Shown here one piece after another: positions 35,656 to 37,371 of a stretch of 64,000 bases of DNA (position 1 is the first letter of the stretch; every line of letters starts with the position of its first letter). Under the pieces are notes generated by a model that saw only the letters and a list, made by a program, of their open reading frames with translations, did not search any database and had not been told where the DNA came from. A program made the translations under genes and the position numbers. Source of the stretch: a virus (lineage: Duplodnaviria > Heunggongvirae > Uroviricota > Caudoviricetes); IMG/VR virus record IMGVR_UViG_2695420859_000012; one strand, given 5' to 3'.

Positions 35656-35803
35656 GTGGACTCCATCCAGTGTCAGAAAGAGTTGCGGCTGGCGATTGCC
35701 AGCCGCCTTTCTCGTTCCATCCTGGAACTGTGTCTTACCGACACATTGTCATCCTGACGCCGATAAGATACATGATTTAAAATGATAGGTAAACACTTAC
35801 TTA

Positions 35804-36394
35804 CTATTTATTATAAACAAAACCAATATCTTTCTTGTGAGGCATATCTGCTGCTGAAAAAGCTGCGATCTTCGCGAGTCGATCACATATTTCATTTTCA
35901 CGATGCCCGGCGTGACCTTTAACCCACTTCCAGCGAACATTATGTCGACTTGCGGCCTCATCCAGACGCTTCCACAGATCAACATTCTTTACCGGTTTTT
36001 TGTCAGAAGTCATCCATCCATTGCGTTTCCACCATTTCATCCACTGTGTCATGCCGTTTTTCAGATACTGGCTATCAGAGTGCAAAATAACGTTGCATGG
36101 ATATTTCAAACGCTCCAGCCCGATAAGTGCCCCCATCATCTCCATGCGGTTATTGGTGGTGCTATGAAAACCATCTGAGAACTCGCGTTCCTCACCACGA
36201 TACTGGAGAACGATACCGTAACCGCCCGGGCCACCCGGATTTTTAAGGCAAGAGCCATCACTAAAGATTTTCACGGTTTTAAGCTGGGGATTGAACTCTA
36301 CGACAGGCGTTGTGGGATTGGTGCGGGGGGAATTTTTGTTTTTGGCTTTTTTGCGAGTTTTTGCTTGCGATCGGGCTGGTGTCTTCGTCGTCAT
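35804..36394 (-). CDS. rnhA: Ribonuclease HI with basic N-terminal extension
   Basis: RNase H domain near-collinear with E. coli RnhA ([27 protein letters not shown]...[16 protein letters not shown]...HSDSQY...[18 protein letters not shown]). Start placed at the internal Met ([10 protein letters not shown]); the track ORF starts at 36478. Confidence 0.85.
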
Positions 36395-36479
36395 ATAAAC
36401 TCCTGAATCAAGCGCCGCGCCGATTTTTCCTCGCGCGTGCGCACACGCGTGCGTGTTAATAATTATTAAAATAAACAAA

Positions 36480-36960
36480 TTACTTCCCAGAACAGGTTTT
36501 TATAAACCTGAACTGAACGAACGAAGTGAGTGAAATTCACCTCGAACGAAGTGAGAGGTTGTCTTTTCAGGTAATACTCTCCCAGGGAGGTGAGTATAAA
36601 AATCTCTCACCAACCTGGTCGTTTCATAACCTGAAAAGTTATGGTCTAAGTCTACTGCCAGCTTAGACTTGGGAAGTTATGGATGACAGCACCCCAGAAC
36701 CGAGATCTTCCCACACTTTATGAAGGGGAGTACTGGATTCAACCTCTCGAAACACCCCAGACTCGACAATCATAAAGTGACCCTTGTCTCTGCTCACTTT
36801 GGTTCCCCCTTCCCCGACACCTAAACGGCACCAGTTCTACGCTGGTAGTGAGCTTTTTTAAACCTGACGCCAGTGACGCTTACCCCCACCCATCAGGTCG
36901 AGTCTCCAGTCTACGACTGGAAACTATCAGATCTTAGCACTTACAATTCACTTTATGAAT
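36480..36960. other. ORF-free region (about 480 bp) with multiple hairpins and short direct repeats
   Basis: No ORF of 60 aa or more on either strand; GAACGAAGTGAG repeated twice; hairpins such as CAGGTTTTTATAAACCTG and CATAACCTGAAAAGTTATGG. Confidence 0.4.
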
Positions 36961-36976
36961 AGTTTGTACTTATCTA

Positions 36977-37231
36977 TCATTGTGATTGATTATTTTCTCT
37001 ACCATGTAGTTGAACATTCAAGGCAAACACCTCATTGATCAACTCACCTAAAAGCTGTTCAACAAGTTCGCGATGCTCGCCAAGATGCAAGCACTTAATT
37101 GCCCATTCGTACAAGTTGAAAGCCTGCTCACGATCTTTCATCATTTCACGAGCCTGGGCCAGAAAATCGCTCTCTACGAGCGCAACGACATTAGTCGGGT
37201 ATGACATGTTGGTTTCCTTAAAGTGGTTCAT
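36977..37231 (-). CDS. Hypothetical protein (84 aa)
   Basis: ORF downstream of the second long palindromic element. Confidence 0.45.
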   Translation of the reverse strand: MNHFKETNMSYPTNVVALVESDFLAQAREMMKDREQAFNLYEWAIKCLHLGEHRELVEQLLGELINEVFALNVQLHGRENNQSQ

Positions 37232-37311: not shown

Positions 37312-37371
37312 CAGCCTGCTTCCGTATATTAATAATTAATATGTAGTTATTTATATATACAGAAGCAGGCT
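37312..37371. repeat. Long AT-centred palindromic element (copy 2 of 2)
   Basis: AGCCTGCTTCCGTATATTAATAATTAATATGTAGTTATTTATATATACAGAAGCAGGCT, near-identical arms to the element at 13118-13177. Confidence 0.6.

Follow-up and report, generated by a model that had tools for sequence, protein, structure and literature searches.

Conservation of a non-coding core

The question raised by positions 36480-36960 of the window (the whole stretch of DNA analysed, 64,000 nucleotides, IMG/VR record IMGVR_UViG_2695420859_000012) is what purpose is served by a 480-bp interval that lacks long open reading frames (ORFs) and lies next to the RNase HI gene, rnhA. The window belongs to the SSU5/pHCM2 type of phage-plasmid, and a reading of its sequence alone had proposed that the interval could encode a small RNA or act as a replication or processing site, perhaps in connection with RNase HI. 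The analysis reported here indicates that the interval very probably contains an independent structured RNA gene, and the RNA is specific to phage-plasmids of this type. The RNA part of the earlier proposal has thus stood, whereas the molecule is not small, being multi-domain, ~440 nt in length and encoded on the minus strand:

36483-36924, minus strand: structured non-coding RNA, ~440 nt, supported by conservation profile, covariation, the balance of G.U over A.C, a breakpoint and a transcript

The elements first noticed by inspection were recovered. No ORF of 60 aa or more is present in 36480-36960, where a list compiled at 30 aa or more shows only ORFs of 30-46 aa. The short hairpins are also present (I1, 36563-36575/36626-36638; I7; I9, 36714-36723/36770-36779; I10, 36901-36911/36915-36925), as is the duplicated (C)GAACGAAGTGAG unit, with CGAACGAAGTGAG occurring exactly twice, at 36518-36530 and 36543-36555. 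When up to one mismatch is allowed, the repeat 12-mer is found only at these two places in the 64 kb (0.41 expected by chance). The limits originally drawn, 36480-36960, fit well, the conserved unit occupying 36483-36924 and its promoter reaching ~36959.

In an alignment of 12 relatives extending from rnhA to Dam, the core at 36480-36900 has a mean pairwise identity of 0.90-1.00, compared with ~0.82-0.91 for rnhA and 0.77-0.95 for p76, the gene on the other side, and identity falls to 0.59-0.75 in the spacers at 36900-36980 and 36300-36380. This conservation, above that of the coding DNA on either side, marks the core as non-coding sequence under selection. Approximately 67-69% identity is retained in a deep clade typified by a plasmid of Cronobacter sp. 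JZ38 (the J clade).

Promoter, strand and transcript ends

Sequence and alignment together indicate that the RNA has its own sigma-70 promoter, of the extended -10 type, immediately followed by a 5'-terminal hairpin:

36954-36959, minus strand: -35-like hexamer TTCATA, 17 nt upstream of the -10
36931-36939, minus strand: extended -10 TGCTAAGAT (TGnTAAnAT), at a fixed place relative to the 5' hairpin
36902-36924, minus strand: P1, 5'-terminal hairpin GUUUCCAGUC-GUA-GACUGGAGAC, starting 6-7 nt after the -10 in every lineage

The -35 position reads TTTAAA, TTTACC or TTTACG in relatives, and the ATT(T/C)A columns at this position are invariant within an otherwise variable spacer. The -10 reads TGnTAAAAT, TAAGAT, TAACAT or similar among the representatives, and TTGTAGAAT in the Klebsiella group. 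Promoter and 5' hairpin are in register in all lineages. The P1 stem itself has at least eight different sequences across lineages and is always paired, being GUUUCCAGUC/GACUGGAGAC in the window and, for example, GCUGGCAGA/UCUGCCAGC, GAUUUCGA/UCGAAAUC or GUCAUUU/GAAUGGC elsewhere. From the position of the promoter the 5' end of the RNA would be at 36924, and P1 would then act as a protective hairpin at the start of the molecule.

The 3' end is placed provisionally at ~36483, from the end of conservation and from recombination breakpoints. Conservation ends at UUCUGGGAAG (~36483) with the conserved tail UUCUGGG, and most JZ38-like members carry a 720-nt insertion exactly after this tail. In JZ38, the RNA 3' end has a terminator-like hairpin, ACCCAUUCUGGGU, followed by AUUAUUU, and the stretch that separates the RNA from the next gene also contains a promoter-like site and a strong bidirectional terminator.

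The minus strand is identified as the RNA strand because, in paired positions across the alignment, G.U cells outnumber A.C cells by 330 to 27. The minus-strand RNA also has a minimum free energy of -164.8 kcal/mol, versus -137.9 for the plus strand (27 kcal/mol better), and the RNA from 36924 to 36483 has a z-score of -4.5, with none of 100 shuffled sequences folding as well.

Secondary structure and covariation

The covariance comparison across relatives that the sequence-only reading had suggested shows that base pairing is kept through compensatory changes. Alignments of 29 representatives (RNAalifold) and of 36 sequences (centroid-fold test) were used. RNAalifold returned 97 pairs, 34 of them with compensatory changes. 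The centroid fold of the window, imposed on the 36-sequence alignment, was 92% paired, with 37 pairs changed on both sides as opposed to 6-12 when partners were slid. In a curated consensus of 93 pairs, 95.3% of cells were paired (33-49% in slid controls), 29 pairs were changed on both sides (3-10 in controls) and the covariation score was 0.266 (0.05-0.085), values reached by none of 500 shuffles; these figures derive from related sequences of few lineages and are not probabilities, and the controls overstate their significance. Approximately 12 helices beyond the 5' hairpin are backed by compensatory changes and by insertions or deletions of base pairs. At least 12 helices make up the predicted fold, in which P2-P4 form the 5' domain, P5-P9 the central domain and P10'/P11 a long hairpin, with the 3' domain after it:

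36862-36898, minus strand: P2, ACCUGAUG / CGUCAGGU with inner GGUG / CACU; 12 pairs, 100% paired, 4 changed on both sides
36793-36852, minus strand: P3, GCUCACU / AGUGAGC, enclosing the variable hairpin P4 and the G-rich GGGGAAGGGGGAACCAAAG; consensus helices 2 and 3
36779-36770 / 36723-36714, minus strand: P5, enclosing P6; consensus helices 4 and 5
36764-36757 / 36736-36728, minus strand: P6, with a 20-nt loop containing the near-invariant AGAGGUUG (36747-36740)
36713-36707 / 36676-36670, minus strand: P7; 100% paired, 3 pairs changed on both sides
36694-36690 / 36685-36681, minus strand: P8; 100% paired, 1 pair changed on both sides
36668-36662 / 36650-36644, minus strand: P9; 100% paired, 5 pairs changed on both sides
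36638-36563, minus strand: P10', CUUUUCAGGU / ACCUGAAAAG, a 77-nt hairpin enclosing P11
within 36563-36643, minus strand: P11, CCAGG / CCUGG and GGUGAG / CUCACC; with P10' and P10, consensus helices 14, 16, 9 and 10
36643-36625, minus strand: P10, CAUAACU / GGUUAUG, a short hairpin that is a competing alternative to P10'
36483-36561, minus strand: 3' domain, consisting of CAACCUCU, hairpins P12a and P13, AU-rich hairpin P14 and the tail UUCUGGG
36561-36554, minus strand: CAACCUCU, complementary to the P6 loop and its candidate partner

The strands ACCAGCG-UAGAAC and GGGGAAGGGGGAACCAAAG are conserved within P3, and the P7-P9 region (36644-36713) is joined by the invariant strand GAUCUNGNUUCUGGG. 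Changes in individual lineages preserve the helices. L194, a lineage distinct from both the main and the J clades, has one P3 base pair deleted on both strands, has lost a paired C and G of P10' and shows an additional A:U pair in P11. Three different versions of P6 are seen, L194 swapping U-A for A-U, and in L201 the inner half of P5 has been rewritten with pairing kept. The 13-nt repeat, CUCACUUCGUUCG in the RNA sense, is situated in the loops of the neighbouring hairpins P12a and P13, giving two near-identical UCACUUCGUUC loops. P13 is 100% paired with 3 pairs changed on both sides; P12a is invariant, so that covariation cannot inform on it.

A long-range contact is also probable. The GGUUG of the P6 loop has its complement, CAACC, near the beginning of the 3' domain, and both are invariant in the main and JZ38 clades. 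L194 shows a coordinated change, of AGAGGUUG to AGAGUUUG together with CAACCUCU to AAACUCU, and it is because both strands change together in this lineage that the pairing is considered supported. The CAACC strand is, in addition, complementary to a downstream GAGG (GAGAG in L194), and for GGUUAUG two partners are available, CAUAACU and UAUUACC. The RNA may, on these comparisons, switch between folds.

Several candidate helices were rejected. Pairing of the 3' tail UGGGAAGUAAU with AUAACUUCCCA (I6) is not kept in the J clade and was dismissed as chance. Two helices specific to the window, ACCAG/CUGGU and a closing helix, AGAG/CUCU, were dropped from the consensus, relatives being 61-89% paired, as was P12b (helix 17), which is 97% paired, since its pairs never vary and the J clade is gapped at most of them.

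The same data bear on whether the conserved entity is DNA, that is, a protein-binding array or a packaging, partition or recombination site. The palindromes and the 13-nt direct repeat would suit such a site, a 27-nt hairpin motif recurs in a gene of unrelated phage contigs (described below), and the record of one Klebsiella phage begins 305 nt away from the match, by calculation near the start codon of p76. However, the 330:27 excess of G.U over A.C is explained only by selection on one RNA strand, the compensatory changes keep pairing as opposed to sequence, promoter and 5' hairpin are in register, and an abundant transcript has been recorded. A DNA-level element is therefore regarded as highly improbable.

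A small protein gene is harder still to credit. A 44-aa ORF within the RNA core, CYRAN_81, is annotated as a coding sequence in phage Cyrano (OV696614), is listed as an expressed moron and is intact in many main-clade members. However, 1- or 2-nt insertions or deletions shift its frame in 7 of the 36 representatives (L010, L040, L055, L013, L014, L051 and L060), it has no start or stop codon in eight J-clade representatives, and no other ORF is common to all lineages. Substitutions preserve base pairs, and the PGAP/RefSeq annotation has no gene at the locus in 232 complete E. coli genomes. The annotation of CYRAN_81, a 'hypothetical protein' moron, is accordingly corrected: it is not a protein gene.

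Expression of the RNA and the downstream slot

Published RNA-seq data for E. coli LF82 carrying Cyrano (PMC9928086, Table 1/S1 Table) list CYRAN_81, as a 135-nt ORF that lies inside the RNA core, among the expressed morons. In LB, CYRAN_81 has an fpkm of 117, versus 9.5 for p76 and 8.4 for RNase H. As log2(fpkm+5), it reaches 6.8-6.9 in LB overnight, 9.0-9.3 and 6.9 in the samples labelled B1 and B6, respectively, and, in macrophages, 8.2-9.0 at 1 h and 10.3 at 6 h (PMC9928086). The neighbouring genes range from 2.6 to 5.8 over the conditions, with ~5.0 for both in macrophages at 6 h (PMC9928086). The segment is thus 12-40 times above both flanking genes in all five conditions, rnhA being about 14-40 times lower, by a gene-level count over 135 nt. 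The RNA is therefore abundant in the lysogenic (plasmid) state, far above either neighbour. Because the segment exceeds both flanks to this extent, it is read as a discrete stable RNA and not as a leader that is mostly read through into rnhA. With a transcript on record and a conserved, covarying structure present, the grounds on which the idea of an RNA might have been abandoned have not materialised.

All genes near the RNA locus are on the minus strand, the immediate neighbours being:

35804-36394, minus strand: rnhA (RNase HI), Pfam RNase_H PF00075, 152 bits; downstream of the RNA in a variable slot, and not part of the RNA
36977-37207, minus strand: p76, a 76-aa gene (phrog_5343) of unassigned function without a Pfam match; upstream of the RNA

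In all 77 loci whose sequence extends far enough, p76 is followed by the RNA. In the slot beyond it, rnhA is present in 66 of these, other DNA in 6 (main clade) and a Tad2-like (Thoeris anti-defence 2) gene in 5 (JZ38-like; PF11195, 31.6 bits; L004:2458-2769, minus strand). Most J members have an extra ORF right after the RNA, 233 aa as listed and with no function assigned (L169:3230-3931), and in some plasmids insertion sequence (IS) elements or betT replace rnhA with the RNA intact. The slot behaves as a hotspot for accessory genes. The link to RNase HI suggested by adjacency is consequently not obligatory, and the RNA is considered independent of rnhA, since the J clade has a Tad2-like gene, an ORF has been inserted exactly after the RNA, and terminators are present in JZ38.

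These observations also weigh on the possibility that the transcript is a long riboswitch- or attenuator-like 5' leader controlling read-through into whichever accessory gene follows (rnhA, Tad2-like or others). The RNA is directly upstream of the next gene, in the same orientation, in all clades, and a CGCGCGAG box is kept 45-60 nt past the RNA in all three clades, whichever gene comes next. A 12-40-fold excess over rnhA would fit an 'off' riboswitch, with terminated leaders abundant and read-through low, and alternative pairings exist in P10/P10' and in P12a versus the P6-loop partner, which covaries with both. The absence of a canonical terminator in the main clade counts in favour of a leader, yet it is, like the changing downstream gene, at odds with a riboswitch or attenuator, which would have one constant class of regulated gene and an expression platform (a terminator or an RBS-sequestering helix). 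Further, JZ38 has the terminator-like hairpin, the promoter-like site and the strong bidirectional terminator before its next gene, an AT-rich, promoter-like spacer separates the RNA from rnhA, and 440 nt with at least 12 helices is far above the size of known leaders. A cis-acting leader is accordingly judged unlikely, and the sequence is inferred to be neither an rnhA mRNA leader nor a DNA site.

In the spacer that separates the 3' end of the RNA from the ribosome-binding site of rnhA, pyrimidines and purines alternate without interruption over 24 nt (36432-36455, CGCGCGTGCGCACACGCGTGCGTG), a type of sequence capable of forming Z-DNA. The rnhA gene itself begins with an N-terminal extension of ~39 residues (36278-36394) that is rich in Lys, Thr and Pro, the Pfam RNase_H domain beginning at residue 40, and these ~39 codons are the least conserved stretch of the gene.

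Replication, p76 and a second lineage with RNase H genes

Beyond p76 are genes for Dam and a 3'-5' exonuclease and, farther away, for thymidylate synthase, dihydrofolate reductase and nrdAB, so that the RNA locus lies inside a block of nucleotide-metabolism and replication genes. This setting is one of several that would favour a replication primer, in which, as with ColE1 RNA II, the transcript hybridises persistently to DNA just downstream and RNase HI cuts it to a primer (an R-loop origin). As in the ColE1 RNA II/RNA I/Rop system, there is a long, elaborately folded plasmid transcript (~440 nt, comparable to RNA II) with G-rich stretches, here the single strands GAUGGGUGGGGG and GGGGAAGGGGGAACC, and AT-rich DNA past the 3' end, here followed by the alternating tract. 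An RNase HI gene and a gene for a small helical protein are neighbours of the RNA; RNase HI adjoins in the main clade (66 of 77 loci overall) and in the more distant lineage L191, with only an rnhA-like leader in L194. Expression in the plasmid state is constitutive.

Several observations speak against a primer. A consensus promoter scan, which is a weak test, found no promoter-like site on the plus strand of 36480-36900, and thus no antisense promoter; there is no match to RNAI or any other Rfam family, and p76 is not Rop-like by fold search. Protein-type replicons (IncFIB/rep_cluster) are typed on these plasmids elsewhere than at the RNA locus. The rnhA gene is missing from the J clade, where RNase HI of the host could take over, and invariant loops along the whole RNA are not needed by a primer. 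No change of GC skew or gene orientation occurs at the site, which is uninformative for unidirectional replication. The idea of a replication site thus found no support, and a primer is considered quite improbable.

The p76 family comprises only 29 clusters, all from the SSU5/pHCM2-type phage-plasmid group. An AlphaFold model of the protein has three helices (pLDDT 79). A Foldseek search of this model against the PDB gave a best match with E = 5.6 and none to the four-helix-bundle protein Rop, and a profile search against PDB sequences gave no meaningful match; a Rop-like p76 is therefore without support from fold or sequence.

In L191-L193, a more distant lineage whose p76 is 70% identical, two RNase_H genes again come after a spacer. 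This spacer, ~470 nt in the slot between p76 and the RNase_H genes (L191:2766-3235, plus strand; identical in L192 and L193), shows no similarity to the RNA: BLAST detected none, nor did nhmmer or a covariance model built on the central domain (R1), both run with filters off. Its sense strand folds at -161 kcal/mol with a z-score of about -5.9, versus -2 for the antisense strand, and on this modelling the spacer may encode a structured RNA of its own, either unrelated or greatly diverged.

Relation to known RNA families

The Rfam scan that had also been suggested returned no family at its gathering threshold when the window and the JZ38 homolog were searched with the 4227 models of Rfam 15 at permissive thresholds. 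These models include RNase P, tmRNA, 6S, group I/II introns, GOLLD, ROOL, OLE, HEARO, c4, RNAI and CsrB among others. Matches, for the JZ38 homolog as well, were limited to chance-level microRNA hairpins (15-24 bits versus thresholds of 47-101), and a weak CsrB match at 35714-35759 lies outside the RNA element. ARAGORN found no tRNA or tmRNA gene in the whole window. The repeated loop motif has no complementary target in the 64-kb window. The two 13-nt copies 25 nt apart, with p76 and RNase HI as neighbours, do not correspond to a type III toxin-antitoxin locus, in which a tandem repeat array would adjoin an endoribonuclease toxin gene. Among the papers searched, none reports this RNA or includes its sequence. 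What is present is what would be expected of a structured non-coding RNA gene in general, namely a promoter, compensatory changes, strand-specific G.U pairs and a transcript, the last from gene-level data.

Immunity RNAs of temperate elements (P1/P7 c4, P4 CI and N15 CA) are antisense RNAs of ~70-80 nt that are cut from a leader and have their target sites nearby. Like these, the present RNA is a non-coding, lysogenic-state RNA of a temperate element amid silent lytic genes; unlike them, it is ~440 nt in length, with no complementary target for its loop motif in 64 kb and no c4 match. There is likewise a resemblance to the protein-sequestering RNAs 6S RNA and CsrB/RsmZ, in that the RNA is abundant, stable and structured, and its repeated loop motifs could bind several copies of one protein; however, only two copies of the loop motif are present and they are not GGA.

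There is also a likeness to the large 'ornate' bacterial and phage RNAs GOLLD, ROOL, OLE and raiA (PMC12286853, PMC9723947, PMC10861870), whose functions are at best beginning to emerge and which also extend over several hundred nucleotides with many helices and invariant loops and junctions. GOLLD and ROOL are often located on a mobile element or prophage, as is the present RNA, which has its own transcription unit. However, the RNA has no sequence or structure match to any of the four in Rfam 15, is smaller than GOLLD, ROOL or OLE, and is found only in Enterobacteriaceae phage-plasmids. Since no described family contains a detectable relative, the RNA is classed as a new family among the large structured RNAs that mobile elements carry. 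RNAs of this kind are rare, and the known bacterial classes of large structured RNA perform fundamental cellular processes (PMC10861870).

A possible mode of action

Of the ways in which such an RNA could work, the most likely is that it acts in trans as a folded molecule, as the scaffold or decoy of a ribonucleoprotein. This is suggested because loops and junctions are invariant along its full length, two hairpin loops are near-identical, no target is present in the window and the RNA is independent of the downstream gene. The invariant loops and junctions would be contact surfaces for protein, and the co-inherited p76 protein is one candidate partner. The mechanism is put forward tentatively, in contrast to the very probable gene; as a compromise between the two, an autonomous structured RNA gene together with a trans-acting scaffold or decoy is thought somewhat probable.

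A number of points weigh against this interpretation. The p76 model has no recognisable RNA-binding fold. A functional link with RNase H may exist, as RNase H genes occupy the equivalent slot in the main clade, in the L191 lineage, which is unrelated, and in L194, where this is judged from the rnhA-like leader only, since the contig ends before the gene. The covariation comes mainly from three lineages (main, JZ38-like and L194), so that the events are few and not independent, and several segments have two possible partners (P10 versus P10', P12a versus the P6-loop pairing), so that the exact fold drawn above is provisional. The main clade has no canonical intrinsic terminator at the RNA 3' end, and the expression value is a gene-level count over 135 nt from a published table.

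A more ambitious proposal, that the RNA represents a new class of large, switch-capable RNA at the core of a module of p76, RNA and a variable effector slot (RNase HI or anti-defence), is doubtful. It would explain the unrelated and equally well-folding ~470-nt spacer in the slot of L191-L193. If true, the RNA could serve in copy-number control, immunity or anti-defence, or could be a ribozyme, and specificity would lie in the RNA itself. What probability remains falls to functions not yet imagined, including catalysis.

As to significance, phage-plasmids of the SSU5/pHCM2 type are common in clinical Enterobacteriaceae, and among their most conserved and best-expressed loci is this unannotated RNA of ~440 bases without an Rfam family match, carried and expressed while the element is dormant in E. 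coli, Klebsiella, Salmonella and relatives. In the published RNA-seq data its level rises in macrophages, and since the hosts E. coli LF82/Cyrano and Salmonella SSU5 are genetically tractable, its function is directly testable.

Distribution and additional observations

The 600 bases around the locus match 12 phage records (including SSU5, Cyrano, PhiR41_1 and Klebsiella phages) and 687 PLSDB plasmids from Klebsiella, Escherichia, Enterobacter, Salmonella, Citrobacter and Cronobacter, with pHCM2 among the matches. The locus is found in 232 of 5,426 complete E. coli genomes, with 232 places on plasmids and 2 on chromosomes. The RNA is found only in Enterobacteriaceae phage-plasmids, a very narrow spread of about three lineages (main, JZ38-like and L194). 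The further homologs that a pattern scan of genome contigs returned, apart from chance matches, were limited to two from Kluyvera and a truncated one from Buttiauxella; a metagenome scan built to skip the main clade gave only JZ38-like copies, and a scan of viral contigs by neighbour protein gave the same set of homologs. L194 and some variants of the main clade came to light through homologs of p76. One apparent homolog, L195 (Logan SRR8137545), was rejected since essentially every C is read as T, a bisulfite-like conversion, and its protein and RNA variants are artefacts.

The Buttiauxella gaviniae copy (L175:4830-5163) is without the 5' end, running from P3 onward, and is joined in frame to a 387-aa ORF at the latter's 3' end, which suggests a piece of a phage-plasmid left behind by recombination. 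Separately, the 27-nt hairpin motif AACAACCTCTCACTACGTTCGAGGTTG, which consists of a stem and the repeated loop motif of the RNA, is present inside a 442-aa ORF of unrelated viral contigs, where an exact 23-mer match is unlikely to have arisen by chance:

L034:6304-6330: copy of AACAACCTCTCACTACGTTCGAGGTTG
L061:1756-1782: copy of AACAACCTCTCACTACGTTCGAGGTTG

Two observations concern the surroundings of the locus. The interval between the Dam gene and p76 contains, at 37313-37371, a hairpin that is conserved among relatives (identity 0.89-0.92), AGCCTGCTTC ... GAAGCAGGCT, the loop of which is long and AT-rich; this hairpin could be a terminator or a regulatory site. Finally, in a plasmid near-identical to the window (99.8% over this region), host-like metG (methionine-tRNA ligase) and apbC genes are annotated inside the phage-plasmid backbone (L190:10618-13909; NZ_CP022167.1 87105-90396), ~7-10 kb to the left of the RNA in the orientation of the window.

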